DNA from: Vermamoeba vermiformis
Taxonomy: Eukaryota
Reading direction: 5' to 3'
Assembly (NCBI GenBank): GCA_045837725.1
Contig: JBEWZL010000302.1
Coordinates: 310,001-374,000 of the forward strand
Length of the DNA: 64,000 nt
The position numbers and the translations under genes were made by a program. The notes beneath the pieces were generated by a model, which did no database searches, was not told the DNA's origin, and was given only the letters and a program-made list of their open reading frames with translations. Shown piece after piece: positions 10,910-63,360 of this stretch; the first letter of the stretch is position 1; the number at the start of each line of letters is the position of its first letter.

Positions 10910-13597
10910 ATGGAGACCACAGCAATGTCCGAACACGATGACGGCTCAGCGCACAACGAGCATATGGATGTGAGTGATAGTGACGACTCACTGTCCTCCA
11001 GCGAGGAGTTTGAAGACGAGCAGCGGATCAACGAGTACCGCGAGCGACTGAACAGCAATGCCTATGACTTTCAGAGTCACTTTCAGCTGCTCAGATTGTT
11101 GCGCAAGGCTGGAGAACTCGATGAGCTGCGACAAAGACGAGTCAAGTTCGCGGATCTGTTTCCATTGCCTGAGAGTATGTCCAATAATTTACAAAATTCA
11201 GATCGTTAATGGATAACTAACAGGCATATGGATCGAGTGGTTGAATGACGAAGAAAAATTGTCCAGCAGCATTGAGCAGATGTGCAGTGTCGTAGCGGTG
11301 TATCAACGCGCGATCAAAGATTACCTCTGTAAGTGCATATAGTGATGCTATTAGAGTATAGTACTGTGTTCATATGACCCCCAACACTCACCACACGTCA
11401 ACAGCTGTCGAACTGTGGTGTCGCTATGCACTCTGGGTGGAACACGTGACTGAATTCGTTGCCAAAAATAGCATCACTGACGAGGAGATACTGGCGCAGA
11501 TACCCCACGTGACTGAAGTCTACGAACAGGCTGTCACCGCGTGCGCGCAACACATCGCGCAAGGACGTCGCGTGTGGCTGCAGTGGATCGACTATCACGT
11601 GCGCCACTCTGCCGCGGAGAGCACGGAGCTCATCAAGCACTTGTACCGCCGCGCCCTCAGCTTGCCTTATAAAGACATGGAGAAGACTCACGCGCAGTTC
11701 CAAGAATGGTGCAGTCACGTGACTGGCGTGTCACCCACAGAGTTCGATGCGCAATACAAAAAAGCACTGAGCGAGTGGCAGGCACGTGCTGAGTGGGAGC
11801 TAAAAATAGACGATCAACAAGACCCGCTCAGTCCCGACTACACGCAACAAGACACGTGGCGGAATTACTTGCAGTGGGAAAAGGACGCGAAATCTCCCCC
11901 GCCGCGCGTGAAGTGCCTGTACGAGCGCATGGTGCGCGTGTACTGTCTGAATCACGTGCTCTGGGGCGAGTACGTCACGTGGGTGCGCAGTGTGCTGGCG
12001 AGCAACAAGAGTCTCGTGTTGGAGGTGCACAAGCGCGCAGTGCGCAACTGTCCCTGGTCGAGTGCGCTCTGGTGCTCCCATTTGCAGAGTCTGCAAAGAT
12101 CACGTGCCGCACACGAGGAGGTCGCGGAGGTGTTTGAAGCAGCACTCGTTGCCGGTCTGCAGCAAGCACGTGACTACGAGCAAGTGTACCTCACCTACGC
12201 GGACTATCTCGTGCGGCAGATTGACTGGACATCAGCGGAGATCACAGCGGAGATATTGCAGCCAGTGCGCGACGTGTTGCAGCGAGCGAGTGACTATTTT
12301 GAGACGTATTTCCCAGAACAGATCTCGCTGATTCAGATCTACTGGGCACAGTTCGAAGGATTCAAAGCACGTGATTTGCAGCGAGCACGTGATTTGTGGG
12401 AAGGCATGTTACGCCGAGACAGCAAAAATCTCCTTTTATGGCAACAAATGATCTCCAGTGAGCTGAGTCACTACCACGCGAGTCAGTCACGTGATCAGTT
12501 CCACAAGGTGCACTCGCAGTTCAAGCGCGTGACAGCACTGATCGGGACAGCATTTGCATCCGCAGAGCTCGTGATCAGCGAGACACTCAACCCCACCCTC
12601 GCGCACGTGATTCTGCAGCAGTGGACGCACGTGACGCATCTGCACGGCACGAGCGAGGACTGCGACGAGTGTCAGGAGCGCATCGATGCGGTGATTGGCG
12701 CGGTCAGTCAGCAAGAGACACAGCAGCGCCTCGCACTCGAACAACAGCAGCGCACACTGCGCGATGTGCGCGCGGAAGTGGCTGCTGAACTGCAACAGCG
12801 CCAGCTCGAGAAGCAGCAGAAGAAGCGCAAGAAGCGCGATGAGGATGGGGCCGCACAGTCACGCCCACTCAAGCGACAGCGCGTCAGTGTCACCACGCCG
12901 CAGAGTGGTCCGCACGCAGGAGTGACAGTGGCACCGAGCACGATACGCGTGTCAGGTCTGCACGAGTCCATCACCCTCGATCAAGTGCGCGACACATTTG
13001 CAGTGTACGGTGAAGTGGTGTCGGTAGAGCACCAGGGCGACAAGCACACCACAGCCCTGGTGCAGTACCGCGACAAGAGTGCGCTGGATGCAGTCATGAA
13101 GCGTGTGGAGCCCATTGTGATTGGCGAGCACACTGTCATGGTGCAGCCTGCGATTGTGACGGGCACTGCTCCTGCCCCCACACTCATCCGACGTGAGAGC
13201 CGCAATGAACAAATGACAGTCTTCTTGACCTCCATCTCATTCAAGACCTCGCAGGAGACACTGGAAACGCACATCAAGCAATCAGCGGCCAGCAAGGGAC
13301 TGCTCGCTGTACGCCTCATCTTTGACCGGGACACAGGTAGGCCGTTAATGCTTGGAAATGTTCCATTGTTCTAATGTCGATGTAACAGGCAAGTCACGTG
13401 GGTTTGCATATTTAGATTACGACACAAAGGACAACTTAGAAAAAGCTATCACCATTTTGAATACACTGACAATTGATGGATGGAGGGTAAAGGCTGCCAA
13501 ATCAAATCCTTCTAAGTCCGCTGTAGATACTCAGCCTGTTAAAGTATCCATGGCAAAACCTGGACTTGTACCAAGGGCACTCCGCGCCAAAAAATAA
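10910..13597 (+). CDS. SART3: SART3/Prp24 U4/U6 recycling factor (HAT repeats + 2 RRMs)
   Basis: Acidic N-terminus, FADLFPLPE.IWIEWL, HAT repeats (CLYERMV, KRAVRNCPWSSALW), and two C-terminal RRMs (GKSRGFAYLDY). Confidence 0.88.
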
Positions 13598-13619
13598 ATG
13601 TAAAGATGGATTGACCATA

Positions 13620-16090: not shown

Positions 16091-16130
16091 CGGGTCATAA
16101 TCATCTAGTGATAACACGCACGAACACGCG

Positions 16131-18875
16131 ATGGATAAGGAAAAGCGAGCGGCTCGATTCGGAACACAGAAACCAGCTGGTAAATTTATTTGTCGCCAGA
16201 TCATGCCTTTCATGCGCAACATTTTTTAATCAGCGTTATTTTGCCTTGAATTAAATTCTAATATTATACAAATAATTTATACTAATTTTTAAAATTATTA
16301 GAAAAAGAATCAAGCCAGCATCCACTCCAAGCGCTGATCGTACGCATAGCAGATCAAAGCAAAGGCTTGGACAGCAATGCCAAAGCACTCGGCGAGGTAC
16401 TAGCGCGCGAACAACAGTCGCGACGCGAAGCAGATCCCGAAGATCAACAAGTGTGGCAGTGGCTCGCCGCAGCACTGGTGCCACAGCCGAATAAATCCGC
16501 GGTGTACGCTGCAGTGCTGAGTGCCACCACGGGACTGCTCCGAGATCACGCGCCACAGCTCACTGCACAGCTCGAACTCGCCCTCAGAGCTGGCAAGTGG
16601 CGTGAAGTGCGCGCGTGGCTATTTTTAGCCGCACACTTGGCCTGCGCACGTGTCGTGAGTGCCTCGGAAGTGCTCCGCGCACTGTGGAGTCTCACCGAGC
16701 ACGGACTCGATCTCGCACCGGAGATATCCGATCACGTGACGTACACGGCCCTGGCTACTCTCACAGTGGTATGCAGTCTATAAATAGAATCACGCGACTG
16801 ATCAGCACTAATGTCCTAATTTAGCTCGGTCCTGCACTGATCGGAATCGAAGATGCCAAATTTGGTGCGTTGTGCGAGCGACTGCTGTCACACATCAAAT
16901 CACGTGACCGCACTCATCTGCTGCACGTGACAGCACTGACCAGCGAGAACATTGATGACGTCGATTACCTGTTTTGGATGGCACACGTGATCGATCAGTG
17001 GCGCGAAAAGAATTGCCCGCCAGTCCCTCACGTGTTTCACGTGCCGTACAGCAGTGCCATCTTCGACGAGCACGTGACTGAACACTGGAGCACCGCACTG
17101 CCCTGGTCGATAAACATTGCGCAAGATTGGCTGGTGGCATCCTCCGAACACAACTTCCATCCGCTGACCAAATTTAGAATATTCCCGAGCGAGACCACAG
17201 CCCTGGCCGAGGACGCACTGACCAATGAGATGCATCGGCTAAAAATAGAACTGCTGATGCGCGACATGGTGCACTATTGGTCCGACGATCACGTGGTGTT
17301 TGTCAAGCACGTGTTCAATCTCCCTGTCGCTGAACACCGCAATTTTGAGCACGTGCTCATCGAGGTCAGCACTTCCATATTAGGCAAAGTGAGTGGTACT
17401 AATTCTAATTATAGCTGCTGTTCGAACAAATCTTCAAACTGCCGCACTGCGAGCACCATCGGCTGTTCTACTATCAGCTAATTATAGATCTCTGCAAAAA
17501 TAGACGCGACTCCTTCCCGCTCGTGGTACGCGCAAATAGTTGCAATCTTTTCACGGCTAACCTATTCTTAGCTCGCCGAAGCAGTGCATCGCTTAGCCAA
17601 TGAAATTTCCCGCTGCGATCTCGAAGTGATCTCGCTGTTCACTGAATGGTTCGCCTTTCACTTGGGGAATTTCAAGTTCATCTGGGAGTGGTCGATCTGG
17701 CGCACGTGGTTGGAACAGTACACGGACTCGTCCGATCTCAGTCACGTGACACTCAGTCGCGTGCTGTTCATGAACGACGCGCTGCTCAAGTGCGTGCGAC
17801 TCTCCGTGCACTCGCACATCCGTGGCACTGTGCCGCGCGAATTCGAATTCTTGCTGCCCTCTCCCGTGCCAGCAGCCACTGACGAGTCACGTGTCTCGGA
17901 GGCACTTCCGATCAGCACACTGTTGACGAAGATGCGGAACAAAGAGCCAGCGGAACAACTCCAAGCGTGGCTGAGCAGTGTTGAAGGTCACTCACCGCGC
18001 GATCACGTGGCCTGGACTGTCACGTGCTTGCTCGACATCGGCGCTCGCTCCGTGAGTGCACTGCTCGTCGTGCTGGCACGGTACGCACCGCTGCTGCAAT
18101 CAATGCTGGCACGTGACAGTGATCTGCACCACGTGATCGGTGAGACAGCACTCGCGTACTGGAGTCAACGGCCCTCTGCGCTGGCACTGAACTACTTCTC
18201 GCGACCACTGGATGCGGAAGAGTTGCCTAATTTGGACAAGTCGCTCGGACACGATGGCGCAACCAGTCTAAATTTGACGATAACTTTGCTGAAATTTATC
18301 TCGTACAAGCTGCTGAGTGGCGAGCACGTGATCACGTGTCTGTTCCAGCGCCAAGAGAGTCGCGAGGACCGATTTGGCACGGGCTCGGAGATGATCCGCT
18401 GCTATTTTTGGGAGATGATCCACGCGGTGATCGACAAGGCCATCAACACACGTGACTTGCTTCATGAACGAGTGCGCGAGCTCGAGAAGAGTGCCACCGA
18501 TCAAAGCGCGGAATTACTCACCGTGGCACGTGACAGCATGGCAGTGGCGCAGCGTGACTGCGAACAGCAATTGTTGGTGGCACTGGTCAAGACTGCGCAG
18601 CACGTGATGCATTATTCCGCAATCTCGGAGCCATCTCCGCAACAACAGCACTGGAGTCACGTGGTGCAGGGACAATTCCTCGCCCTGGGTCGCAAGGTGA
18701 GTTCTGAATACTGTCGCACGTGATATTCCTAACCGAGCATGTCTATTTTTAGTATCGCAGCCTGGTCCGCGGAGTGCTCCCCGAACTGGAACAGAAATTG
18801 CAAGAATTTAATTCTCCGCTCATGTCGCGCTTTGCAGCGATCAAATACTACGCGGAGTTGTACTATGCGTCGTAG
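16131..18875 (+). CDS. NCBP1: Nuclear cap-binding protein subunit 1 (CBP80)
   Basis: LQALIVRIADQSKGLDSNAKALGEVL, PNKSAVYAAV and FTEWFAFHLGNFKFIWEWSIW..LLKCVRLS match CBP80 MIF4G blocks (WFSHHLSNFQFRWSWEDW). Confidence 0.88.
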
Positions 18876-19048
18876 CGGTGATTGCCATTTTTGGAAATGA
18901 GGTTGTGGCTGTCAGACTTGTATCAGACGTCAGTCACGTGCGTCATGGAATGTATACTAAATTAGGCGTTGCTTCTTAATTCTTTACAAATAATTACATG
19001 GGTAGCGGTGCTATTTTAAGATACAAGGGTGCGAGGAGCGAAAAGAAT

Positions 19049-20900
19049 TCACTTCCGATCCTCCGATGTGACGGACGAGGGCTCGAGACTGCCGTTGAGT
19101 CCGAACTCTGCCTTATATAGCCGCAGATAGCTGTCAAATATCTCCGTGCATAGCTGTGCCACTTCCTTATTTGGATGTTGTTGGTATTCTTTCACAGTTT
19201 TGCCAATTTTGGATTTCTGTGAATGGTAATTAATGCGCGAGAACAATTTCCAAATATAGACAGTGGTGCCAGCATACCTGCAGCAGTTCCAGCGTAACAT
19301 TGCAACTCTTCAGTTTGTGCAACAGTCGCACGGCCGCGCTCTCGTTCTGATCTTTGAGCGAGTGGCGCAGTGACACTTTGTACGCATTCAACTTGTCAAG
19401 TGTCAACTCGCCGCTCTTGCCCTCGCCGCTGATTGACAGCTTGCGGCGCTTTTTGGACTCGTGGCTGTCGTCCTCGTCGCTGTCTCGCTTCCGCTTCTTG
19501 CTGGGCGGTGTGTGGTCGGTGTCATTTGCAGATATTGCGGGGGTGTCATTTGCAGGTGTGTCTTCCATGCGATACACGGGCTTTTTCTTGTCTTCGCGGC
19601 GCACAGGTGAAGTGCTCCGATCATTGCTGCTATTTTTGTCGCTGGCACCTTTGTCAGCTTTGTGATTGTCTTTGTCATTGCCGTTATTTTTTGTGCTGGC
19701 ACTCTGTTTCTCTGGTTTGCGACTATTTTTAGCCTTCGCCTCTGCGGGCTGTTTCTCTTCCTTTACAGTTTCAGTTTTGACACTTTTGACAGGCGTGTCA
19801 TTCCCACGACTCGGTCGGCCACGTGGTTTTCTCGCTAATTCTGCAGCACGTGATTGCTGTCGCGCCTGTTCACGTTTCACCAAGCGCAGATCACGTGCTT
19901 TATCTTCAATTTTTCCGTTCTGTTTGCTGGCACTCTTCGTCTCATCACGTGATTTTGCTTTGCGCCCGCGCTTCTTGGGCTTAATCTCCTCGCGCGGAGA
20001 TTCACTGCTGTCCTCTTGCGAACTCTCTTCGTCCGAGCTGTCACTGCTGTCACTGCTGTCACTGCTGTCGAGTCCTTGCTTCTGTTTCTTCTCGTGGCGA
20101 ATGGCCTCGTCAATCGCGTAGGACAGCTTCTTGCTCGTGCTCTTCGTGTCGGCTTTGCTGCCGATAAAGTGCTGCAAATCTTTGGCCAGCATCCAGCCAC
20201 TGCAGAACGGTGTTAGACATTGCAGTTGTGCATCGAATGCGCTATTTATAGCCGCAGTGTTTGTTATTATGGGCATGATCGTGCATGTGTAGCTAAGTAT
20301 AATTCGATAACCGTGCAGTATACTAATCATTTGTGCACTACAATCACTGCCGCGCTCTCGTTCAGCCGTTACAAGCATTGCCAGTATTTACAGTAATTAC
20401 TATAATCATATAACACTAACACTGCTGTTGTGAATTAAAGAGTACCACGCACCATAATGTGATATGCGTAGTGTATATATATGCACAATGAGTGTTATTA
20501 AAGTGCTAGTAATCATCACTTACTATGTGACAGGTTTGCCAAAAAATCGCACGAGCAGATCTGAACTCCGGTGTTCTGATTTGAGGACTTTAGGAGGCGC
20601 TTTTGACCTCGCTAACACCTGCACAATTATAATGATATTAATATCGCTCTTCGTAGTCATGTCATTGCGCGCTGGTAGATGACAAAACCGAAAAGGGAAA
20701 AAATTTAAAAAACCATAAATTATGAGAATAGCTTCCAATAAATGTCCGAGTCACATAATAATTCATAGTTATAATTCCGAATAATAATGCTGCGCAAAAC
20801 TCGGTTTTGAAACACAAAAGTGAATGCAGCTTACCTTTGCGGGCCAATAAGGATAGCCTTTGATCTTGGCCCAGACCAAATCTCCGTCTTTGAAGCTCAT
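19049..20900 (-). CDS. PWWP + TFIIS-N-like domain chromatin reader (LEDGF/HDGFL2-like architecture)
   Basis: Exon 1 encodes MSFKDGDLVWAKIKGYPYWPAK, followed by LLVRFFG; an AT-hook-like KPRGRP; C-terminal LHKLKSCNVTLELLQKSKIGKTVKEY..EVAQLCTEI (TFIIS N-terminal fold signature). Confidence 0.85.
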
Positions 20901-21070
20901 TGCAGTGGACGTATGAGCGAGCTATTCGCGCAGTCCTATTTGTCTGCTGAGTGTTGTTGACACAATGAGCGGATCAATTCAACAAAGTGATTTTCAACCC
21001 AGCACTGTCAACCACCATCGCCCTGCTGCACTGTACGCGTGTGTTGCAGACACAATAGACACACCAGATC

Positions 21071-22830
21071 ATGATTAGTAGATCACTTTGTCGCTGCATT
21101 CAGCGGCAGTTAACACGAGTGACAGCCACATCTGCTAAACTCACGCCACTCACTTCCAAAAAATTCAGTAAATTGCGCGCCACTCAATTCTTTCAAAATA
21201 ATATATATGGAAACCACATTGAGGCCTGGTCGAATTTTAGAAGATTTTGCAGCACGATCCAACCCACGGATCAAGTACCAGTTATGACGCCAGAAGAGAT
21301 GCTGAATAAAATCAAGCAGATTATGGGCAGCGATCAATGTCCAGGCTGCGGTACACCCCTGCAAGTCACGGACTCCGAGCTGGTGGGGTACATCCCGTCC
21401 TCGGTGCTCAGTCGCGTGCTGTCCACTGCGCCACACACGAGCCCCACCAGTGCGCCACACACGAGCCCCACCAATGCGATGCTGCCGAGTGATGCGCGCC
21501 ACCACTCGCTGCTGTGTCAGCGCTGCTTCAAGCTCGTGCACTACAACACACCGCTGCAGAGTCGTGCGGATGTGGTGCTGGAGAGCGAGGAGAAGTTGGT
21601 GGCACGTGTCACTCGTCCTGCCCCCGATCGATCGGCACCACTCGTGGCTCTATTGGTGGATTTGGGTGACGTGGAGGGCTCGCTGCTGTCACGTGGCAGA
21701 CTCAAGTCGCTGTTGCCGAGCAGCACGCCGCTGGTGCTGATTGCCACCAAGATCGATCTCTTGCCACCAGGGCTCAGCGAGACACGTGTCACGGACTGGC
21801 TCCGAGCACGTGCTGTCAAGTGCGGACTCGAACCACGTGCGGTGTTGTTGACGAGTGCAGTGACAGGTCACAATGTGACACGTCAGACGTCAACCACGCA
21901 CCAGGGCCGACAAACAGTCACGTGACAGCAGTGGCCCGCACGAGCAGCTCTTGTTCGAACAGCTCGCCAGACTGGCACAGGGCCGCAACATCGTCTTCAT
22001 GGGCGTGCAGAATGTCGGCAAGTCCTCGCTCGTCAATCGTCTCTTGCGGCACGTGGACAAGCGACAGCACATGACTGGCACACTGCCACTCAGACCTCCG
22101 CTCACCACCTCGTACTTCCCAGGCACTACTCTCGCACCGATTGCGCGTCCACTGCTCGCGGTGGGTGACACGAATGACACGTGTCAACAGATGCTCTACG
22201 ACACACCAGGTAACACGCTAGTGCCCATATTAGGCAAGTGCTGACACAGTGCCAGGTCTGGTAGCCAATCAGCCGCACTTGTTGACCGCGCTCATGGCCA
22301 GCAATGTGCACAAACACCTGCAAAGTCACGTGCTCAGTCACGTGGTGCTCGACAAGCGCATCAATCCAGCAGTCTATCGCTTGACGCCAGGCCGCACGCT
22401 GTATCTGGGCGGCGTTGCACGGCTCGACTACGTGTCTGGCCCGCCGCTCGTCTACTTCACGCTGTTTGCCTCGCAGGCGCTGTACGTGCACGAGACGAGC
22501 ACTCTGCGCGCGGAGGAGACGTGGCACTCGGGCCAGGACAAGTTCCTCGTGCCCGTGTTGTACGACCCTGCGCGCGGTGACAAAGTGCCACTGCCCCTCC
22601 AGTCACGTGAGCTCACACTGCGCTCTGCACTCAACTGGGAAGAGGCGTTTGTGGATGTGGTGTGGCCGGGGCTGGGCTGGATCGCGATCACTGCAGTCGG
22701 CGAGTTGAAAGTGCGCGTGCATTGGGCCTTGGATCCGCAGGGCATTGTCGCGCGCGAGCCCATCATGCCCTTCGAGAGCAAGCGCGGACTCAAACCAAAT
22801 CCACGCTTCCAGAACAAACCCGTGTATTAA
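21071..22830 (+). CDS. NOA1: Mitochondrial circularly permuted GTPase, YqeH/NOA1/Mtg3 family
   Basis: Arg/Ser/Thr-rich presequence; CPGCG..CQRCF zinc motif; G4 TKIDLL precedes G1 GVQNVGKSS, G2 PGTT and G3 DTPG; C-terminal LYLGGVARLD and DVVWPGLGWI. Confidence 0.88.
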
Positions 22831-23007
22831 GTGCAGCTGTAGTGTCAAGCTAGTGCGGTACTTGACCAGTGTAGGGGCACTACTAGCGTCCTGGTGCTGA
22901 TAGTGTACTGGCGCTGTGGTGGTGCGTGTCGGAGCAGTTCAGTGAATAAACAAACTGTCACAGAGTAGCAGTAATTAAACCACAATAGAGACACAACTGG
23001 TGGCAAT

Positions 23008-24212
23008 ATGTTGACCAATAAGGCACCAAAACTAGTCGCTGCAGTCACCAAGTTGTGCAAATCCAACAGATTGGTCGTGTTGCATAACCCGATCACGCAC
23101 ATGACACAAATAAGATGCAAAACTGTGGGTATGAATATTATCTCTTATAAAGACGCATTCGTAGAGCCAGCGTACTTCGAGTAAGTAAAATACAGCAATG
23201 AAAATAATTAAATAATAATTTTTTAAAAAATTAATCAGAAGCAGGACGTTCACACTTATTATAATATCTTCTCTATAATTTTATTTTGGCCTTTTTTTTA
23301 ACGTGAATTTGCAGTCCAATTGAAGAGAAAATCGAGGGCTGGATCCGACACGAGACAGGTTCAACAGCGATTAAATTAATGCACAAAGAGGGCTATATTC
23401 CTGGTCTACTAGTCAGACCTGAGATCAAGCCATTTACTAGAGATCAAATACGCAGCTATCTGCTCAAAAAGCTGCAACATATGAAGATCGAGGCCATCAA
23501 GGAGCGACAAGAACTCGCGAAGCTGCCGACAGAGACTAAGAAGCGCAAAGAGGTGCCTAAAGTAGAGCCTATTATTACCCCTGGCCTGAGCGATATTGTG
23601 CGTCGAATGCGCGAACAAGAAGCTGAATCCGATACACGACGCTTGAAGTACCTGCAACACATTGGCTACAGCGATGCCAAGCCCCCCTCGGTGGACGATG
23701 AAATTGCGAGTATTATGCGCGAGTTGCGCTTGACTGAAGAGCCGCAGCTTGAATTGCCTGCCCCCACGCCCTACCGAACAGATGTGCTCATCAAAGTGCG
23801 ACCGTGGCGCATTCGTGGTCTGATGAACCAACAGCAGTTCTTAGGCCGTCGTTACATCCTCACTCTCGACAATGGCGAGCAGTATACGGTGATTGGACAG
23901 CACTTGGAAGTGGATCCGCAAGGCATGCACCCGACAGCAGTGCAGCTCATCGTGTGGGACCCGCGCCGCGAACCAGCGCGCCGTTACAATCAACTGCCCG
24001 CGAAGGGTCGCTCGTACCTGACCCTCGAGGAGCAGGAGGAGGAGAACAAACGTGCTGCTGCGCGCAAACAACAAGACGACTCGGACAAGATTGAGAGCGA
24101 CAAGAAGGCTGCTGAAGCTGCTAAGGACGATAAGAAAGCACCTGCTGGTAAGGATGATAAGAAAGCTGCCCCTGCTGCTGCTGCTGCTAAGGATGACAAG
24201 AAGAAAAAATAG
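23008..24212 (+). CDS. Putative mitochondrial ribosomal protein bL25-like with large internal insertion
   Basis: Exons 23008-23128, 23165-23180 (16 nt) and 23315-24212 splice in frame. Presequence ends QIRC; IEGWIRHETGSTAIKLMHKEGYIPGLLV and FLGRRYILTLDNGEQYTVIGQHLEVDPQGMHPTAVQLIVW resemble the two halves of the L25 domain. Confidence 0.6.
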
Positions 24213-24814: not shown

Positions 24815-27800
24815 ATGGAAAAAGAGTTCAAGTAAGACCATAGCGAAGTTGAATATGACTGCTATAATACGCAGCTATCGCGCACGCGGAAATAAAGGTA
24901 CACTCTTAAAAGTTGAACTAACGGAATATTTTCAGATCAAGCGAGAAGGCTAGTCTCGATAAGAACAACACCAACGACGACAAATCAGCGCGATCAACAG
25001 TCGCATTAGACCGCTGGAACAAATTGTTGGGCTCGGTGGGCAAGATCAAGTAGGTGTTCTGGCTGCTTTGAGCGCGAACAGTGCATTTCATACTAAACAA
25101 CCTCATTATCGGCCCTATTATTATAATTATAATTACTATCATGATTGATACATTATCGGCCTATCTCCTCGCACCTCATCACTCACTTGTCAATCATCGT
25201 CGAATGAAATTTCTGATCACGTGCTTCTACCAGGGCATGGAACAGCAAGACCGGGGAGAGTGCCAGTGCCCTGATCACACTGCCCCCGCGCAAGAACTCC
25301 AAGCTGCGCAGTGATGGTACCGCGAGCACATCCAGCAGTGCCGCATCGTCCCCCGTGCCCAGTCGCCACTCCGCCTCGCCCAGCAAGAAGTTGAGTCCGC
25401 AGCTCACCGCGCTCAAATCTCCGCTCGCCAATCTGCGCAAGACGCGCTCGTCCTCGATCAGTGCCATGGTACCACGCCGCGGGTCCTCGCCGTCCAATCT
25501 GCTCGGTGCCACGCAGCTGTCGAGCAGTGCTGCAGTGCCCTCGCCACAGCCCTCAGGGGACTCCTTCGCGCAAATCACGCGCACTCTGCGCCGTGTGAAG
25601 AGCGAGCGCTACGACAACTCGTGGGACTGTCCGATCTTCTGGCACAACAACACACAGCCGCGCAGCACCGCGAGCACGCCACTGTTGGGCAGTGCTGTGG
25701 AACTCGATGCGATACGCCGCACCGTGACGAGTCCTGCGGGCCTGAAGGTGAATGAGAGCAGCGCGCCTGAGCTGGAGTTGAAGAACAGCAGCGAATTGCT
25801 CGGACAACTCAAAGCGATCAGTGCACAGCGCAGCAAGAGTCGCCGCAAGATACACCGCTTGAAGGACAAGGAGAAAGACAAAGACAAAGACAAGCACAAA
25901 GAGCGCAAGCCACGTGATTCCATGCTGATCAGTCCCAGCAGCTCTGACAGCATGGACTTGAGCACACCACGTGACTTGAGTGACTTGAGCACACCGCGCG
26001 AGAGGAGTGGCACGATTGACGCGCACATGTTCAAGCTGCTGCAAGAGATGCAAGCTGATCCGAACAAAGCACCGCCCAAGAAGTTGTCGCGACAGGACAA
26101 AGAGTCCTCGGCCTTCAACTTGCACCTCGCGACCACTGTGGCGCAGAAGAGTGCTTCGGTAGATCTCGTGGTGCCCATCGGCAAGCACCCGTATTTAGAC
26201 ATATCGCGCATTGAGTGGGGACAGCGCGACGAAGACGAGACTGTGCGTCGCTTTGGACTGCTGACCACGAGTCGCAGCTTGGCCTCGCTGACACCGCGTG
26301 CTGTGGGTGAGAACAAGATCATTCTCGCTGGACCCCTCACGCAACTCGTCAATGTCGCGGTCAATCCGCACGCTGCGTGTAAGTAATTGACAGTTTGACA
26401 CGTGTCACTCGCTAACTTGCAAGCACAGATGACAGTTTCTTGCGCATCATGGTGCTGACTCACCGACACGTGCTGAGTTCACACGAGTTCTTGGACAAGT
26501 TGATTCGTCGCTATCACATCAAGCCCCTCAAAGGGCAAGAGGACAGCATTGAATTCATGCACCACAAAGAGTTGCTGCAAGAGGGGTAAGTCACGCACTC
26601 TGATGACACGTGTCACTTGCTGACCTGTGCGCAGTGTGATCACGATACTGCAGTCGTGGATGGACTTGCACTTTGACGACTTTGTGGGCAATGAGAAGGT
26701 GCTCGAGAGCTTTCAACAGTTCGTGCATCAGCTCGAGAAAGGGTCCGACAAAGACCGCGACTTTGTGCAGCTGTTGAACCGCTCTATGGCCCGTCAGTAT
26801 CGCTTGTTGGAGGACGCTGATCGCACCCTCGCCAAATACGCGCCCTTGCTGCAACAGTTCATTGAAACAGAGATGGCACTCGCGCAGGGGGCCTCGATGA
26901 CAGGTCCGCTCAAATTGACGCGCATGGCCCCCGTGCCTGCCAATGCCGTGGCCGTGTCGTCCATGTCACTGCTCGACTTCCACCCCCTCGAACTCGCCAA
27001 ACAACTGGCACTGCGCGAGTGGAGTTACTTCAAGCGCGCGGAGATTGACGAGTACATTCATCTGCGCTGGACCAAGTCGAACAAGCACAAGAGCGCACCG
27101 AACATCTTGCAGCTGATTCGTCGCTTCAACGAGCTGAGCTATTGGGTGGCCAGTGAGATTGTGTCCACCGTCAACAAGAAGAAGCGCGTGGTGGTGCTGA
27201 CTCGCTTCTTGCAGATAGCTAAGGTACCGAGTGATATCACTAGTAGCGTCACTTGTGCGCACTGATTAACACTGTTGCTTGCAGTACTGTCGCGATATGA
27301 ACAACTTCCAAGTGGTGATGGCCATCTATTGTGGCTTGAATATGCAGGTACGCACACTGAGCTGCATAGAGCAAGATATATATACCTCTATATACCTCTA
27401 TATAGCGCAGCAGTACTGACCGCAGCACAGGCCATTCAACGACTGCGCAAGACGTGGAAGGGAGTGGGCAAAGAGCACATTGCGCTGCTGAAAGAGCTCG
27501 ATCAGCTGTTCGAGGCCGCAGAGAACTACAAGCAGTACCGTACGCGCGTGCGTGCTGCAATCGATGACAATCAGCCCGTGCTGCCGTTTCAGGGCGTGTA
27601 CTTGAAGAGCTTGGTGTTCATCGAAGAGAACGGCGACAAGACTGAGCGCGGACTGCTCAATGTCGAGAAGTTAGAAATGCTCTACAAAGTGCTCTACGAG
27701 ATACGCATGTGTCAGCGCTATCCATTCCCCTTCGCTGAAGTACCGCAGATCCAGGACTACTTGACCAATCTCGAGGCTATGAGTGACGACGATCTCTACA

Positions 27801-38000: not shown

Positions 38001-39602
38001 ACCGTGACATTCCTCAAATATCTGCTCGGACCTGATCTCTCGCTGTTCATGCTGCACAATGCCACTCCCAATCCCTCGCTCAGCAACAGTGCCGACAAGA
38101 ATGCTGTCGTGAGCACTGGTACCTCTTCGCCCACTCCCTCGCTCAACTCCTCCTTCGCGGAGAATGAAGTGCCCCTCGGACTCAGACGTGCGGACAGTGC
38201 TGTCAAACTGCGCACCAGTCTCGCGCTCTCCATGCGTGCACGTGCATCTTCGCGTGGCACATTGACAGCCTCGCCCGTGCGTGCACATCCCATGCTCGGG
38301 GCCTCACAGCGCGTAGGACTCGTCAACTCCCCTGCTGCCACGACCGCCAGACCTCGCTGGTCCTATGTGCAGGAGTGGGGCACCGTGCTGTTCACAGCGG
38401 CGCATCGACTCAGCGCGGAGCTCGGCAACAGCAGCGAGGCCCAAGCACTGTTTGCAGTGTCGGGACGGTACTTCAAAGAGGCACTCAAGTGTGCCCCTGA
38501 AGACGCACCTCTTGCACCCCTCGTGCCGTGGATCTTCGATGTGAAGCGCGACGATGAAGTGGCCATGCTCGTGCAGATCATTCAGCACAGCGCTGATTTG
38601 ACCAAGTTTGACTCGTCGTGGTGTCCACAACTCACTGCAGACTCGTTGCGATGTCTGCTGTCACACGCCAAGGTCAAAGAGCTCGTGTTGACGGGCTTTG
38701 AAGTGTTGCCCGAAGTGTTCAGTGAACTCGGCTCCCTCGCTGCACACCTCACTGACCTCGAAGTGCTGGTGGTCAAGCAGTCCAGCACCGTCACCTTCGA
38801 GGCCCTGAAGCAGATCATCGAGCACGGCAGAGTGCGTGCACTGACCATCTATCGCTGTCCACTCATCAGCGCGCAGCACATTGGCGTGTTCAAGCAGCGC
38901 GGTGTGCAGCACATTGAGTTCGAAGAGGCTCCCTCCACACTCGTGCGACTGCCTTCAGGTACCAAGCGCAACATCACCATGGCCTTCCGCGAGAATTCAA
39001 GCGGTTCATCGACCAATCTGAGTCCCGTGGCAGATCTGACCAGCGAGGACCAAGAGAACATCTCCAGTGTCGTTGTGTCACTCAGCAGCAAGGTCGGTGG
39101 GTTTTATTCCACCGCTAACTGCAACTGCGTGCAACTCGTGGTCAATAGGTAAGTTAATGCTACCTGTAACGGACTCCATTTGACACGTGTCATTTGCAGC
39201 ATGGCGTTCCAGTGGCAGGACGAGGCAGGCAAGAACATCTCGTTGTCACCGCGCGATTACTATGCACAATACACCGCGTGGTCCAATGCACTCATCGCAC
39301 AGCTCAAACAGTCCCCGAGCAATGGTAAGTGTACCCTGCTGTTACTGTAGACATGCGGATCACTGACACGTCACATCACAGCCACGGGATTCAGAACGGT
39401 GATGCAGCAGATCTATCGTCGTCTGTTCAGATTGTGCGGTCACTTGTGTTTCGCGCACTTGTCCGAGCTCGATTACAACGACTTCTTGTCCTCATTCGCC
39501 AAGCTGATCACGTGCGGTGAACACTACAAGCTCGTCTCGCAGGTGGACTTCTCGCGCTTGGAGGGCATTGTGAGTTACGTCAAGAAGCACGCGCAACAAT
39601 AG
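35054..39602 (+). CDS. CLU-domain protein with helical/TPR-like region, short LRR and C-terminal MOB1-like domain
   Basis: DFLYAAKTYGKIIISE, GGEKFICNGIVFKFA, AMKAAGHDL, IDWCGYRLIAMCLLPI, EGHRGQDTRYYVIDLARLCPP, LRPEYV and LHGEGINLRLLG (CLU). C-terminal FQWQD..IYRRLFRLCGHLCFAH..LSSFAKL (MOB). Confidence 0.82.
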
Positions 39603-39843: not shown

Positions 39844-42800
39844 TTATGAATCACTGCTGTCAGCAGTATCGTCCAAATCCAGATCTAAGTTGGCGTATCT
39901 TCTGCTTGTAATCTTTTCTTCCAAGTGCGTCAAGTCTTTGCGTGTGATGATACCAACCACTTTGTTCTTGCGGCTCACTACCACAATGTGACGCAATCCC
40001 ATCGTGCGGAATAATCGATAGACACGCGACAACGAAGCATTTCTCAGAATGGTGAAGGGGTATTTGTTGTAGTCTGTGTGCATGTTAGACACAAAACGTG
40101 CCACATTAGGATCTATGTGTACTTACAGGGCTTGAGGCTCATATATAGATCCATATCGTCCTCAGCAACGGTCACCGATTGGATCTTAGGGAAGCGAGGG
40201 TAATCGGCACTGAAGTCCACATAGGAGACTGGATGTGGGCCAATGGGTTGATAGCGCACTTGATCGCCCTGCAGTCTGTTTAGTACTGACACTTCATTCA
40301 TCATCAATATCATACCTCAGTGGCCATTCGACAAAAGTCTCTGCTCTTGAGCAAAGTGACCAATTGACTGCGCAAGATGAGGCCACAAAAAGTGCCGTCG
40401 TGATTTACAATTGGATAGCCGTTGTGCGTGGTAGTTTTGAGTACTTTGTACACGTGTGCAACTTTTTCAATCTTCTTGAAAGTGTAGACAGGCTGCGTCA
40501 TAATGTCTTGCGCGAAGAACTTGCGCATAAAGTAGGGTGCGTCCCAGTGCAAGAACGGAATGAACTTGGTCTCGTTGTACGTGTCGAAGATGCCCGATGT
40601 GAACCAGTCTCCGACCCACTTGGCAATCAAAAGCATGACCATAATAGGCAAGCCGTACTTGAGGTGTCATTAGCAAAGCTATAGCATTGCGCAACACTTA
40701 CAGTAATGTCATTCGTGGCCTCAATTAACATGACCGTCAGTGACATGGTCATGCGCGTCACACCGCCCATCATCGTCGCGGCTCCAATGAGGGCAAATGA
40801 ACCTGTCGCAAGTATTAGGGACGTGATATTAATGACTGACTTCGTACCTGGAAATATACCCCACGATGGTGCAAGATAGCCCACAACTTCACCCACAATG
40901 CGACCATAAGCTGCACCGATCAACAGACTCGGCACAAATATTCCGCTCGGGACTGAAGTGCCGTACGTCCAACACGCGAGCAGGAAATAGACAAAGCAGA
41001 ACACGGCGAGTGTGGTCAGACTGAAGGACTCGTCGCCTGTGGAGTGGAACAACTGTCTGAGCGCGAGTTGCGGTGTGGTGTAGAACAGCGTGGCCATGTC
41101 ATTGTAATAGCCCTGGTAGAGTGTCAGGCCCAATATATTTGACACGTGTCACAGTACATACGTTAGGGCAGTAGAACTGAAAGCGTGTCAATTCAATGCC
41201 AGGTGTGGTCAATGAATTGTCGTCCATGCGTCTAAGGGCATCATTAGCACTAAATATAGCTAAATTATTAGAATAACGACGTACTTGCAGTCGTGAATGA
41301 AGTACGACAGTAAATACGACAGCAGACTCGTGACAATAGCAATGCCCACAGCCTCAAGTACGCGCACGGAGGGTCGTTTGGTGCGTTTGAGGCGGAACAA
41401 GGTCAGTTTGAGATTGAGCCAGTTGAACAATGCACCAACAAATCCTCCGAATATGCCGATCAGAATAAATATCGGGAACTGTTCGATGGTGTAGCCGTGA
41501 TCGCGCGAGTGAAAAAAACTTCCAAAACTGATCAGGCCTGGCTGGGCAAATGCACCCCAGTTGTGGTAATCAGTGCCCGAGAGCATCAAATTGACGGTGA
41601 ATGTCGCTACAAATGAGCCGAAGAATGACCGCCACGTGAGCACTTGATTCCAGAACGACGCTCCTTCTTCGAGTGTGAACAACACACCGCCAATCGGCGC
41701 ACCAAAGCCTGAGGCCATGCCTGCTGCTGCACCTTCAGAAATGAAATCTCGCTTCTCACGATCATTGCGGAATGACTAAATTAGGAAATCATGAGTTGAA
41801 AGAAGGACTAATGAGGGGTTGTCACTGACCTCCATGGACTGCGTGTCTATAATAGGAAATGTCGTGGACTTGCCTTGACTGATGCCCGCAGCAATGATTG
41901 AGCCGTTGTGGATCATTGTGCCTAAATATAGACATTAGAACAACTGCAATGATTGACAGCACGTAACGCACTCTCTTGCCCGACAGGCAGGCCACCACTG
42001 ACTGCAAAGATCACTCCGAGTGCTTTCACGAACAAGGTCTTGATGCGCAACACGTGCGGAATTTTAATGCCGTTCAGATAACACTTGATTTCAGGTATGC
42101 CTGACCCTGCTGCGATTGGCTGGCAAAACAACACTGGTGAGCACGCGTATTACCATTTAAGGAAAATACATTACTGACCTCCATATAAGCCACTAATATC
42201 GCAGAGAATAACACGAGCACGCCGTTGATGCTCATGTACACAACGAACGGCATCCAGAAACAGTAAGTGCACGACTCCATAACTGCATTCAATCAGAGTA
42301 TTATAAGCTGCTAGTAGTGATAATATGCTACATACCCCAAGTAACGAATTCGAATTTGTAAAAGGTGAGAGTGCGCACTGCAATGCCGATCCCAAAAGCA
42401 ATGAGACCAGTCAGAATGCCGATCAATAGCGTCAATATCCAGCGGAAAAATTCTGCGCTGCGGAGGTACTAATGAGATGTCAATATGCGCTCTTAGAACA
42501 TTGCAGTGACGAGATCTATTGGCACTTACACTTTTTGAGGAGGTGCGCGAGTACTCTTCATCAGCTACATTACTATCGCAGACATCGTAATCTGTACTCT
42601 ACAATAATTGATTAATAAACAATAATTAATCGTTGAATTGAATGAAGTGATCTGATTTTTATTTTATTTCGTATTTATCTTTAAAATTTGTTATTGAAGC
42701 AATATGATCTACTTGAAACATATATATTACCTCGTATTTATGCGCTGCAGGAGTTGTTCTATAAATTAGTTTTCTGTAGGGGACTTCATCTTCTTGGATC

Positions 42801-48484: not shown

Positions 48485-50879
48485 ATGGAGGGGCATCCTA
48501 AAGATCTAACGAAAGAAGAGGTACCGACAAATTTAAATGTCAATAGGCAACAGGTATTTTTGTCTAATTATTTTGTTATTCTATTTATCATCCCGGACGA
48601 TTACAATTGCTTAATACTGTATTCAAATTTTTTAAAATTAATTGTAATATTATGGATCAGTCCAAGAAGCCAACCAACTTTATTCCTGACTTTATGGATG
48701 AAGACACTCTGTTCAATCATATGGAAGATAGAATTGGAGATCAATCCTCAGAAGAGCCCTCAGAGATAACCACGGATGTCACAAAGCTGCCATTTGTACA
48801 AAATCTAATTCGCGAAAGTAAGTCATACTGATACAGAAGATTAATATCAACCTTCTTTATAGATGAAATTCTCAAAGAGAGGCTACGTTATTTTACAACG
48901 TCCTTGTACAAGGAACTCAAAGACGACGCGCTTTGTACAATAGCGTGGCATCAAATACAACAGTAAGTCATTATCGTATAATAATAATGAAAATCACCAC
49001 TAACAATGATATAGCGAGTATCGACAGGAGTTGGAAGACATTCTGGCGAAAGCTTACCTCAAAGACAACTATTATGATAGCAGTTCCTCGAGTAGCGTAA
49101 GCCTGTAACCACCGATAGTAAAATATTTAAATATCGCAATATGCAGGATGATAGTGGCGATGAAGAGGAGAATAGAAACAAAGAAGAGATAAATTTAGAT
49201 GAATTAAGCGAGCCGAGTATCAACACCGATAATGCACGAGCCGCAAGAGAATTGAAGAATGCAATGGTCGAGGAAAAAGCACCAAGTGATAAAACAGCAC
49301 CTGAGAGCACAATAGTATCTACCGATAATAGCAGTGGTATCGTCACTGTAATGGATCCACTCCCGCTTGAACCATCGTCTTCGAGCGAGGAGAGTAGCGA
49401 GTCGGAGTTGGACGAGATGGAAGAAGAGGAACAAGCCGCCGCTGCCATTCGAAGAGGCCATTAAAGTTGAGGGCTTAGGTGTGGCCAAGTATTACAAGGG
49501 GTTTTGCATTGACACGTGTCAACACAAACTCGATTTTCAAAATCTGAACTTCAAGCCTTGGGAAGTACCTTAGTATCCTTTTTAAACAAATACAACAAGC
49601 ACTCTTCGGAATTAAATTATTATCCTTAATTAGCTTAGCTACGAAAGGCTACTGTTGGATCCACTGCCATTGCCTCCAAACAAGTAATGCCTTTCACTCT
49701 CACTATCCGTTTTTAACAAATTTTTAGGCCAATTCGCGAAGTAATATCAAAGTGTTTTAACTGTGGTGCTCCAGGGCATGCATTTACCGATTGTCCTCAC
49801 GTAAGTGAAGTCCATAAATTCCCGCCAAGTACTTATCTGCGACAGCCACGAGACCAAAAAGCTATCAACGCGAACAGACGAAAGTTTTTAGAAACATCTA
49901 CCAATAGAACCGACGAAGATGATGGTCACAGATACTGGGAGAGCGATAGTTTAACTCAGAAGACACGGTATGGCGTGTTTACTCCTGGCGTACTTAGTGC
50001 TACTCTGCGGGAAGCACTCGGCATGAAAGTAGACGAACCTAAGGACACAACCGACGAAGAAGGACAAATTGAAGGTGCTGATGAACCTCCCTACTACGCG
50101 CGAATGCGCATTTTTGGTTACCCTCCAGGCTACATCAAGTGCAAGTACATATGTAACCATTTAAGTTATGCTAACATTACTACAGTCGACACAATACCAA
50201 CTCCTTCCGGCTTAATTGTACACACGGATAGCAAAGAGAATGATGGCCAAGACGACATTCAGTTCAATCAAAATGCACTTTCAGTCATCGAACAAGCTGC
50301 TCCTCACTCACAACAACCACCTGCCCCACTTGTCACCTATCCTGGCCTTCATTTTGAACCTCAATACTTTGCGCAACTTGGTATGTCTTAAAAGGCAGTG
50401 AGCAACTATGACTGACCTTCGAATAGATCCTGCAAACAAAACTATCAATCGCAGACACAGCGCAGTCAACTTGCCTCCAACACAGCCGCCAGTGTCGTTC
50501 ATGTCACCGGCAGCTCGACCAGCAGCATCGTGGACAAAGTACAATAACAACACGAATAACGCACAGTACAACTTCAATCACAATCACAAGACATTGTATG
50601 ACAACCACCAAGAAGAGGACATGGTGATTGAGAGCAGTCCAAGGCCCACAAGACAAACTGACAGCTCGCGGGTAATGTCATGGATGCGCCTTAAATAGAT
50701 GTACTAGAGCTAATTGCCATTCATAGAAACGCAAAAGATCTTCATCGCGATCTCGATCACGGAGCCGGGAAAGAAAACGAAGACGAACACGATCAAGAAG
50801 CAGATCGCGTTCACGCGAACGAGAACCTAGACGCCGGGAAAGCTACGGGCATAACAGCAGGTCCTATGATAGAAGGTGA
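48485..50879 (+). CDS. ZCCHC8: ZCCHC8 (NEXT complex) zinc knuckle + PSP protein with RS-rich tail; apparent frameshift near 49460
   Basis: KYYKGFCID, WEVPYY, CFNCGAPGHAFTDCP.PRD..INANRRKF, FTPGVLSATLREALG and PPYYARMRIFGYPPGY. Confidence 0.85.
49573..49638 (+). other. U12-type (minor spliceosome) GT-AG intron
   Basis: 5' site GTATCCTTTT, branch site ATCCTTAAT about 10 nt before the AG, and no polypyrimidine tract; removal restores the frame WEVPY-YER. Confidence 0.88.
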
Positions 50880-60459: not shown

Positions 60460-63360
60460 TTAATGAGGGTTGATATTTGCGTTGTAATTCAGCTCGCGGT
60501 TCTGTACAGTCTTCCAAACGAAGAATCCAACGGCAAAGCCAGCGATAGCAACACCGATGGCCACAACTACGGACATCATTGCGTAGTACGCAGGTCCATA
60601 ACGTTGATTGAATCGTACACTGTTTGACGGGGTGGTTGGTGTATCTGTAGTTGATGGGGCAAGGGTCGGTGTATCAGCAGTTGGCGGGACTGTCATGTAC
60701 ACTGCCATGCACTCGTGATTGACGCAATTGTAACTCGATACGTTGCCAGTCGGTACGAGACAGTGCTCGGACTCCAAGTTGTACGCGCACACTCCATAGC
60801 AGTTGTGGGTCAACAGCGCTTGGAAGTCATCACAAGTGGCTTATAATTGAAATTAATAAGAGTATTATCTTTCTTCGTAAAACTAAACTTACAGTTTGCA
60901 CACGTGTAGTCAAACATGAATCTAATGCCCCAATTCTCGACACACGGGCTCGCAAGCCAGTTCTGAACTAGGGTCTTGCAGTTGTCATTGCACTGATCAA
61001 CGCCATTCACTCTGCACTGCGGAAGGATAGTATTGAGGGCGTAGGCCATGTGGGCAGTGAAATTGGCTGAAAGAATATTAGTCCCGAGATCATTATATTC
61101 ATTAATCAACGTACTGTAACAAGAAGCAAGCGGCAGAGGTGAGTTAGTAGCCACGTCCCACAGACCGACAGTACCACAGAACGCTGTCTCGCGGTTATCG
61201 CGATATCTGTCCGCTGCAAAACTGCCACAAGCATTGCTGACCATTCGCGGATAGTGCATCAAAAAGCTGAAGCAGACTAGTGCAAAGGTGTCAGTCGTGT
61301 CACAATTTCATTGCACGCGTGTCATACCTTCACTTTCCACCACGTCACCAGTGCTCGAGGAGGTGTCGTATTCACAGGCCGTGAAGATTTTATCGTTCGG
61401 CTTGATCTTGTCAAAAGGCGTGTTCGGTGTGAATGTGTAATTGCTGATCATAAAGTCCAAGTCCTCCCCGACGAATTCCGATGTGGTGGCATTTGAACGC
61501 TCTGTCCAAATACGACGGCCAAGCGAGTGCATGAACAAAAAGCTGCTGAAGACATTGATGCCCGTGGCGTCGGGAATGATCTGTTGCGTGCAGACAGCAG
61601 GACACACGCCACTCTGAAGGAACAACGTGAGCTAAAGTGCACTAACGAACTATTATTGTAACAGTGACGTACTGTCGTTGTATTTGATTGGCCAGCTGGC
61701 AAGATCAATCTGCGCGACTCAATGCGACCAGTCATCAACACACCGGCTGAGGTTTGAATGCTGAAAGTGACACGTGTCAGTATCTCTAGTGCACTCAAGT
61801 ATTGGGCTTACGTTTCATTGGCAGTGACGGTGAGTGTAAGACCACTGTTGTCCACCAGCCCGTTGAGCTGCGAAGGGTTGTTGTAAAATATCTTGAGCAC
61901 GTAGGACTTGGTCGGATTGACTGGCATGCCAATAAAGTGTGGCAAGCAAAACTCGGTCTCAGTCTGGCGAGTGTTAGGCGATGTCTCGTTCAGTGAAATG
62001 CGTTCAGTGAAATACTTACAGGACCCCACGCATATGTAATGCGATCGCACATTGTTTGACCAGGGACAGGACAGGCACCGTCCACCGAGGCAGGGCTAGT
62101 GCACTCTTGCAATATAATGTGCTGCACCATGTCGATCTTGTCTCTGATTGGCGCAAACTTCACAATGTACGTGTTGGTCTCGTTGACACCTGGGGGCCAA
62201 TTTCCGTCCACAGTTAAATTAACAGACCTAGAAATAAGGAGTTGAGACATTTCATTAATATAATCATCCTCGATATATTAATTCTAATAATTTAACTAAC
62301 AATATTCCAATCACAAATTTGATGCACTAAGAACTATGCCATCATTCGTCACACGAAAAATAAATCAAACTTTTTACGCCTTTAAGGGCGTCAGTCATAT
62401 TTTAATAAAAAGAGTATTATTTAATTGAAATGCTATATTAATCACGAATCTAAAATTTGCTAATTTCCTTGCAGGAAGTTGCCGATTTTTTGTTTTCTGG
62501 GTAAGCTGTGAAACATCGGAATAATCTCTTATAATCGCTTATATATAATTACTGCTTTATAATGCTTGCAATACTTACTGACACGCGTAACCTGCCGTGG
62601 TGTTCGGAATAACTAAGTTTGACACCTTTAGATCAACGGTAAAACTATCTGCGTAGGTGTTTACTGGTGTGCAAAAGCCCCTATAAAATATTGAGTATAT
62701 TTGTATTACATAGGTGCATATTAATTAGCTCTTACGGGTTGTTCGGGTTGTCAGGCAAGCCCGGATGTGTAATCCCTGTTGTTCTTTCAGGTGTTTGGCC
62801 TGGTGTCCATACGCATTGTGGATCACCCAGCTCTTGACCATTTGTCATACCATCGCCATCCGAGTCTTTAATAAATATTAACGCGTGTCAGATTGTCAAA
62901 TCCGAAAATGTAAATTTCAGATTTCAACTCATAAGTACCTAGCTCGCACAAAGCTTTGGTCCAAATATGTCCAGCTGCCGCAAAATCTAGACCGAATTGG
63001 TTTCGCGCTCCTCCGCCCTCTATACAAAGATCAGCCGTTTCGAAAAAGTCGTTCGCATTATCGGATCATCAAAGTCTTATTGTTTATGTATAGATATATT
63101 TTCAAGTATTTACCTGGCATTATGTGACCGACTCCGGGCCAACTAGGAACATTGTTACCTTTTAATTACAATAAAATTAATAATTTATCGATTTAGATAG
63201 TAATGCATTTGATATACATTAAAGGACTTATAAATCTTGGCTAATAATATTTTTACAAAATAAATTAATTTGTTGCCCTACCGTTTGGGATCTGGCTTTG
63301 ATACTGAGGAAGCGCCAACACAGTGGCTAAACAAAAGTGAAATAATACTATCCTAAACAT
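60460..63360 (-). CDS. Type I membrane temptin-domain + copper type II monooxygenase (DBH/MOXD1)-like protein, probably inactive
   Basis: Signal peptide; IPNG..WPGVGH..GGGARNQFGLDF..WTKALC..DSDGDGMTNGQELGDPQCVW..THPG (temptin); monooxygenase-fold motifs YAWGP, YNNP..VDNSG, AGVLMTG and CEYDT; Cys-rich region, Thr/Pro stalk and C-terminal TM. Confidence 0.85.

Follow-up and report, generated by a model that had tools for sequence, protein, structure and literature searches.

The window considered here is a stretch of 64 kb from Vermamoeba vermiformis (contig JBEWZL010000302.1, positions 310,001 to 374,000) and consists of gene-dense eukaryotic DNA with short GT..AG introns, in which the palindromic hexamer CACGTG is packed into the bodies of a few genes. 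In three RNA-type studies, contigs run across the genes and leave out the GT..AG introns; the genes can therefore be regarded as real, expressed and spliced. In four transcribed genes covered by these contigs the hexamer is present in 4 to 26 copies, and this signal acts at the nucleotide level, distorting both codon choice and amino-acid sequence. The positions of the arrays, of the genes that carry them and of an extended form of the motif are collected in Table 1.

Three genes are dense in CACGTG: a SART3-like gene, NCBP1 (CBP80-like) and a gene for a NOA1/YqeH-like GTPase. Their names, proposed in an earlier note made from the sequence alone, are backed by the domains of the predicted products, namely HAT repeats with an RRM, the Pfam domains MIF4G_like and MIF4G_like_2, and a YqeH-like C-terminal domain, respectively. 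In NCBP1, whose nearest non-close relative is 27-36% identical, RNA contigs from the three studies span 17571-18694, and RNA contigs also confirm two introns of the SART3-like gene (11329-11404 and 13333-13384). In the NOA1-like gene the window sequence changes reading frame near 21879-21922, and three other runs differ from the window in this gene by one base fewer at 21910 and three fewer at 21934, which suggests an assembly indel or a strain polymorphism. The fourth gene lies on the minus strand, and a Pfam scan of it returned no match.

Table 1. Positions in the window of the CACGTG arrays, the genes that carry them and the exact 12-mer form of the motif
Feature	Position	Strand	Details
CACGTG array	16640..18940		26 sites: 24 in NCBP1 exons, 1 in the last predicted intron (18717), 1 at 18935, about 60 nt beyond the stop codon
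NCBP1/CBP80-like gene	16131..18875	+	ATG 16131, TAG 18873-18875; short GT..AG introns
CACGTG array, SART3-like gene	11443..13400		16 sites, 15 of them within 11443-12633
SART3-like gene	10910..13480	+	HAT repeats and RRM; ATG 10910; 3' end approximate
CACGTG array, NOA1-like gene	21603..22609		11 sites
NOA1/YqeH-like GTPase gene	21071..22827	+	ATG 21071; YqeH-like C-terminal domain; first site at about +530
CACGTG cluster	19820..19951		4 sites, all in frame 1, within the minus-strand gene
Minus-strand gene	about 19150-20900	-	ATG 20900; confirmed introns 19217-19277, 20200-20523 and 20617-20832
TGACACGTGTCA	26396..26407		Predicted short intron of a RasGEF gene
TGACACGTGTCA	26604..26615		Second predicted intron of the same RasGEF gene
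TGACACGTGTCA	39181..39192		Predicted intron of the LRR/CLU gene
TGACACGTGTCA	41140..41151		CLC-channel gene region, minus strand; possibly intronic
TGACACGTGTCA	49510..49521
TGACACGTGTCA	61768..61779

The window as a whole holds 110 copies of CACGTG, against 22.19±4.51 (maximum 33) in 100 dinucleotide-preserving shuffles. The observed-to-expected ratio (o/e) of the hexamer is 4.86 under a 1st-order Markov model and 2.35 under a 3rd-order model, where it ranks top of all hexamers by z-score, and falls to 1.32 window-wide under an order-4 model; in the dense regions it amounts to 10.9 (order 1) and 6.5 (order 2). The counts that the earlier note had made by hand in the three dense genes prove to be exact. 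For the NCBP1 array, chains of order 1 and order 2 yield 1.6±1.3 and 3.2±1.8 copies, compared with the 26 observed. Simulated chains of order 3 and order 4 yield 15.2 and 23.3 copies, but these two expectations are circular, because the models were trained on the same 2.3 kb, in which 25 of the 27 ACGT tetramers already lie within CACGTG. Outside the hexamer, ACGT is scarce in coding DNA (2 of 27 in NCBP1, and one of three in the CLU open reading frame (ORF)).

The control hexamer GTGCAC, composed of the same two codons in reversed order, is not enriched (35 copies in the window, 3 in NCBP1), and the alternating purine/pyrimidine hexamers other than CACGTG, when pooled, show an o/e of 0.74 locally and 0.86 window-wide. 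These two values rule out Z-DNA or an alternating purine/pyrimidine bias; the earlier note had conceded that its reading would fall if such hexamers were equally enriched, which is not what was found. CATGTG and CACATG are scarce throughout the window, with 17 copies where 61 (order 1) or 32 (order 2) are expected, an expectation that is inflated by the dinucleotides of CACGTG itself. The spacing of the sites shows no significant periodicity, the best power being 9.3 at 64.5 bp among approximately 500 periods tried. All these results come from a single 64-kb window, whose gene models are partly based on ORFs.

Within the scored ORFs, 73 sites are distributed over all three reading frames: 36 in frame 0, where they encode His-Val, 31 in frame 1 ([SPTA]-Arg-[VADEG]) and 6 in frame 2 (x-Thr-Cys/Trp), the enrichment being independent of the frame. 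The argument that this frame independence speaks against selection on codons or protein holds up in codon-aware comparisons. In the 2194 codons of the dense genes, 51 sites are present, compared with 17.8±2.6 when synonymous codons are shuffled with the protein held fixed and 5.8±2.3 when the order of the codons is shuffled. The sparse genes are mildly enriched as well (19 sites against 8.4±2.0 and 6.1±2.3, respectively). His-Val occurs 24 times in the dense genes where 7.1 are expected, compared with 10 occurrences of Val-His for the same expectation, and it is encoded as CACGTG in all 24 pairs, despite CAC accounting for 82 of 95 His codons and GTG for 113 of 164 Val codons. Likewise, the [SPTA]R[VADEG] tripeptide is found 37 times in these genes against 14.6 expected, and His makes up 4.3% of their residues, compared with 2.6% in the sparse genes.

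The comparison of NCBP1 with 149 distant homologues points in the same direction. His-Val reaches 16 per 1000 residues here and 1.46 in the homologues, and the columns that contain the motif match the homologues less often (0.17) than the other columns do (0.32). The motif therefore occupies tolerant positions, on which it has imposed lineage-specific residues. The claim that the motif overrides protein sequence is thus borne out. A foreign origin of the dense genes is unlikely, given that His, Val and Arg codon usage is alike in the dense and the sparse sets.

The density of sites varies between neighbouring genes from 0 to 9.25 per kb (chi-square 64, df 8, p = 7e-11). NCBP1 (9.25), the NOA1-like gene (6.25) and the SART3-like gene (6.23) lie at the upper end, while the RasGEF and LRR/CLU genes have 1.3-1.8 sites per kb and one gene has none. 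GC content and codon usage are nevertheless alike in both sets, and CpG is not depleted anywhere, its o/e being about 1 (0.96-1.15 in dense genes, 0.90-1.00 in sparse ones). The dense genes, with functions in RNA processing and, for the GTPase, in the mitochondrial ribosome, resemble a growth or housekeeping set, judging from very few genes. Between genes, the untranscribed spacer at 13.5-16.1 kb contains no CACGTG and the region from 42 to 53 kb contains two. Introns carry the motif as well, as the earlier note had reported: one site (25218) lies inside an RNA-confirmed intron (25050-25233), and four (18717, 26399, 26607 and 39184) lie in predicted short GT..AG introns. These intronic sites argue against a function in the mature mRNA.

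The arrays also spare the beginning of the genes. In the first 500 bp after the ATG of the three dense genes (3 x 500 bp) no site is found, compared with about 14 expected at the density of the gene body. In these three unrelated genes the first CACGTG lies at about +516 to +533 from the ATG and the second at about +595 to +619, a regularity that may reflect placement with respect to the gene start or the nucleosome array.

According to their flanks, the sites conform to an extended consensus, R-(T>G>A, rarely C)-CACGTG-(A>C>T, rarely G)-Y, i.e. RNCACGTGNY, which is symmetric and independent of the reading frame. A purine occupies position -2 in 78% (frame 0) and 87% (frame 1) of the sites, and a pyrimidine occupies +2 in 89% and 86%. 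At -1, T is present in 53% (frame 0) and 37% (frame 1), compared with a background of 17% and 15% at those codon positions, and C is avoided; position +1 mirrors this pattern, with A favoured. Extended forms of the motif, another feature pointed out in the earlier note, include TCACGTGA (17 times) and ACACGTGT (10 times). The two half-sites combine independently, since the T..A flanks of TCACGTGA are observed 17 times and 17.1 are expected from the marginals. Symmetric flanks made of independent half-sites would be the expected product of a symmetric dimer on double-stranded DNA, and neither single-strand RNA recognition nor extended RNA self-pairing would be expected to yield them. RNA folding over 17700-18690 is ordinary (z = -1.07): 4 of 20 shuffled sequences fold just as well.

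A longer form stands apart from this pattern. Six copies of the exact 12-mer palindrome TGACACGTGTCA are present in the window, where independent flanks would give ~0.03. Three of them lie in predicted introns of ~50-65 nt, shortly before branch-like boxes (CTAAC/CTGAC), and the 12-mer seems to be of a more specific class than the RTCACGTGAY sites of exons.

Conservation at the DNA level can be assessed with a metagenome contig, L001, that carries the NCBP1 orthologue of a related species, aligns to 16122-18086 and is 82% identical to the NCBP1 exons, with the start codon conserved. Within this stretch, 14 of the 16 window sites are found unchanged at the same position in L001, which contains no additional copies, whereas intact hexamers number 488 of 1453 (34%; binomial p = 1.3e-5) outside the motif and 36 of 131 among NNCGNN controls. 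Among codons for the same amino acid, silent third positions are identical in 28 of 29 cases inside motifs and in 260 of 413 elsewhere (Fisher p = 6.6e-5). For sites in frame 0 the silent positions compared are the third and sixth of the hexamer, and for sites in frame 1 the second and fifth; their conservation therefore indicates a constraint on the whole hexamer and not just on its CpG. The flanks are retained too: at the 14 conserved sites position -2 is unchanged in all cases and +2 always remains a pyrimidine. The two sites found only in the window, which differ from L001 by substitutions without indels, correspond in one case to CGCGTG and in the other to a multiply substituted sequence; the site at +516 in NCBP1 is not shared with L001. 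An excision footprint, in which 6-bp CAC|GTG insertions would have added two codons each, is ruled out by the gapless substitutions that distinguish the window from L001.

At the protein level, a sequence 89% identical to the NCBP1 exon keeps all 13 motif peptides. In two relatives of the SART3-like protein (P0162 and P0163, 85-86% identical), 14 of 15 and 13 of 15 motif-compatible peptides are kept, and the motif residues are not significantly more conserved than the background (36/38 against 515/604, p = 0.15, and 34/38 against 514/604, p = 0.64). A scan of viral contigs found no SART3 relative in them. Among the 40 listed of 668 differences between runs and the window, G>C at 8249 destroys a site in a sparse gene and T>A at 17035 alters the flank of another.

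Other genes in the window named by Pfam include several RasGEFs, a huntingtin fragment and genes with F-box/LRR, CLU, calpain, gelsolin/filamin, ankyrin and C2 domains, as well as a NIF phosphatase and a CLC channel; tRNA and Rfam scans of the window returned no matches. The F-box/LRR and CLU/eIF3_p135 ORFs at 32517-39600 may form one large gene: the best homologues, of about 1900-2400 aa, combine LRR, CLU and eIF3_p135, some of them adding UBC, and the only named ones belong to Planoprotostelium fungivorum and Tieghemostelium lacteum, so that the organism would most likely belong to a little-sampled lineage of Amoebozoa. At 14006-14675, in the AT-rich, untranscribed spacer that separates the SART3-like gene from NCBP1, lies a nested inverted repeat that resembles a foldback or MITE (miniature inverted-repeat transposable element), with outer arms at 14006-14026/14655-14675 and 14124-14147/14589-14612 and inner arms at 14168-14224/14506-14562 and 14265-14281/14446-14462. 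It is covered by many contigs of a water-metagenome run at a depth of 35-43 and is probably a repeat family. Transcripts nearly identical to those of the genes in 6001-26000 are present in runs under several organism labels and in water metagenomes, and the organism is therefore probably a protist that is common in fresh water or in laboratories.

Several known systems resemble these arrays in part. HIP1 (GCGATCGC) of cyanobacteria is described in two papers as a short palindrome that is hyper-abundant in genes regardless of frame and retained above chance, its function being unknown (PMC5861425, PMC4390886). CACGTG shares with HIP1, as described there, an abundance far above compositional expectation, an occurrence inside genes in any frame and a retention above chance. 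It differs from HIP1 in being a eukaryotic hexamer, in its confinement to transcription units with the 5' ends excluded, and in being gene-specific where HIP1 is genome-wide; within the window it is not spread over coding and non-coding DNA alike, as the spacers are unenriched. The same hexamer is the core of the class-B E-box, the G-box and CDEI, bound by bHLH-ZIP or bZIP dimers such as USF, TFE/MITF, Cbf1 and Max, of which Cbf1, USF and TFE prefer RTCACGTG. The arrays share with those sites the palindromic core, the symmetric half-site flanks and the independence of the half-sites, and with a purine at -2, and T but seldom C at -1, their flanks resemble the RTCACGTG preference. Known sites of this kind are, however, single or few and located in promoters, enhancers or centromeres, whereas here up to 26 are found in exons and introns at a cost to the protein sequence.

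Clusters of one hexamer in the transcribed or coding region of selected genes, in any frame, are also known from the DSR (determinant of selective removal) elements, U(U/C)AAAC, that Mmi1 reads in meiotic mRNAs of fission yeast. Those are strand-specific, non-palindromic RNA motifs, unlike CACGTG, which is symmetric together with its flanks and is intronic too. Gene-body CpG methylation likewise involves the bodies of constitutive genes and spares the 5' end, but in this window CpG is not depleted and a single hexamer is involved instead of every CpG. The periodic An/Tn clusters (PATCs) of germline genes in C. elegans, which are intronic, AT-rich and periodic, likewise place a non-coding DNA signal inside the transcription units of some genes only; the CACGTG sites, in contrast, are mostly exonic and show no significant periodicity. 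Each of these five systems thus fails at least one defining feature, and we regard the arrays as an iterated palindrome, or homotypic site cluster, in a new form that is specific to gene bodies and overrides protein sequence.

The motif itself appears, from sequence comparisons, to be under selection at the DNA level, and the explanation that we tentatively favour is that the CACGTG copies are maintained by selection as double-strand sites that a dimeric protein recognises within gene bodies. We infer the dimeric reader, its family and the effect of its binding. The reader would be a symmetric dimer, most likely of the class-B bHLH-ZIP or G-box bZIP kind, and its sites, in arrays of 4 to 26, would crowd the transcribed bodies of certain genes from about 0.5 kb past the start codon onwards. 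The genes marked in this way would comprise the SART3-like gene, NCBP1, the NOA1-like gene and part of the fourth gene, with RNA-processing or mitochondrial housekeeping functions, and the protein would mark or regulate them jointly from inside the gene body, perhaps by acting on gene-body chromatin or on elongation. The earlier note had proposed either a gene-body DNA-binding protein or a eukaryotic counterpart of HIP1 driven by a methyltransferase/repair ratchet. The former fits the symmetric, frame-independent flanks and the independent half-sites; the latter is not supported in the form proposed. A genome-wide ratchet of the HIP1 kind disagrees with the confinement to transcription units, with the spared ~0.5 kb at the 5' end, with the range of 0-9 sites per kb between neighbours, with the conservation of all six hexamer positions and with a CpG o/e of about 1, and a deamination-repair ratchet acting on CpG alone would not produce the conservation of all silent hexamer positions in the orthologue. 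A ratchet based on Vsr-like T:G repair is rejected because silent positions beyond the CpG are conserved and no enrichment is seen outside genes, the deficit of CATGTG and CACATG being a partial point in its favour.

Several observations weigh against a dimeric gene-body reader. The Pfam scan of 33 ORFs in the window found no HLH or bZIP domain and no CACGTG-binding protein, and the promoters and spacers of the three dense genes contain no CACGTG, unlike the usual location of transcription-factor sites. The amino-acid cost is paid to site these sequences in coding DNA when 2.6 kb of non-coding DNA adjoins, and this placement points to a function that requires transcription through the site, a requirement that a pre-mRNA element or a DNA modification made during transcription would satisfy equally well. 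The coding frames, moreover, derive from ORFs plus RNA joints that are partly listed, the gene classes are drawn from about 10 genes in the window, and the DNA-level conservation comes from one orthologous contig of 2.1 kb and one gene.

An enzyme that modifies only CACGTG would account for much of the same distribution. In such a case, genes needing the mark would have evolved dense arrays, and their 5' end would be kept clear so that initiation is not silenced; the candidates are a methyltransferase of the restriction-modification or DNMT type, possibly together with a TET/JBP-type oxidase. The confinement of the palindrome to transcription units, the motif-free 5' zone of the three dense genes and the contrast between dense housekeeping genes and sparse signalling genes are in line with this, housekeeping genes being the ones marked by gene-body methylation in invertebrates and plants, and a CpG o/e of about 1 is consistent with no general CpG methylation. 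The two sites lost in L001, however, are not the product of C-to-T decay, and frame-independent preferences at ±1/±2 are seen more typically with DNA-binding proteins than with type II enzymes. CACGTG is given as the top-ranked in vitro substrate of mammalian TET catalytic domains in one preprint (10.1101/2021.12.29.474486), which is a lead and not evidence for this system. Overall, we consider motif-specific modification possible but doubtful, and we have similar doubts about a broader form, in which a mark restricted to CACGTG in gene bodies would depend on one enzyme or reader in transcribed chromatin, acting by methylation, oxidation or direct binding. If a hexamer-specific mark of this sort were true, the genes that depend on it would carry one site per roughly 90 to 160 bp beyond the first ~0.5 kb, their proteins would have been rewritten with His-Val and Ala/Ser-Arg-Asp at tolerant positions, and the arrays would be a eukaryotic counterpart of HIP1, gene-selective and with a selected function.

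It is unlikely that the element acts as RNA, that is, that CACGUG copies in the pre-mRNA or mRNA are bound by a protein or pair with each other to affect processing, decay or localisation. Such a role would agree with an enrichment confined to transcribed regions and absent from promoters and spacers, and with arrays found in any frame of selected genes; moreover, two of the dense genes code for RNA-processing factors. Single-strand recognition, however, gives no reason for a palindrome with symmetric flanks, the flanks behave as independent half-sites rather than as extended self-complementary units, sites and exact 12-mers occur in introns, and the folding of the array is unremarkable. We regard as very unlikely a recombination or repair signal, whether through Chi- or hotspot-like stimulation of conversion or repair in a polyploid amoeba or through biased gene conversion. 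Over-represented oligomers do have genome-maintenance roles in bacteria (Chi, uptake sequences, HIP1), and the motif is concentrated in housekeeping genes; yet eukaryotic hotspot motifs tend to erode where here 14 of 16 sites are conserved, and neither the 5' exclusion nor the absence of intergenic enrichment is predicted. That the motif is functionless and arises neutrally from composition, codon usage or a mutation bias that depends on context (including a bias towards alternating purine-pyrimidine or CAC/GTG/CG) is scarcely credible. CAC and GTG are indeed the preferred His and Val codons, local models of order 3 and 4 predict 15 and 23 sites, and the window-wide order-4 excess is small, but the high-order models are circular. 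Neutral bias is excluded by the codon-aware nulls, by the GTGCAC and alternating-hexamer controls, by differences of up to ninefold between adjacent genes of the same GC content and codon usage, and by conservation far above background that includes silent positions.

The literature searched contains no account of CACGTG being enriched in gene bodies or in Amoebozoa. The arrays would show a DNA-level signal in coding sequence that overrides both synonymous and amino-acid choice and is conserved between species, to the point that His-Val is about tenfold commoner than in homologues. A 'second code' in eukaryotic exons is usually subtle, whereas here it is blatant and gene-specific, which makes it experimentally tractable by recoding, by chromatin immunoprecipitation and by calling methylation at a single hexamer cut by PmlI. 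The long-standing puzzle of HIP1 gains a eukaryotic comparison, and the arrays also serve as a warning that, in this lineage, selection on a motif confounds estimates of protein divergence and of the ratio of nonsynonymous to synonymous substitution rates (dN/dS).

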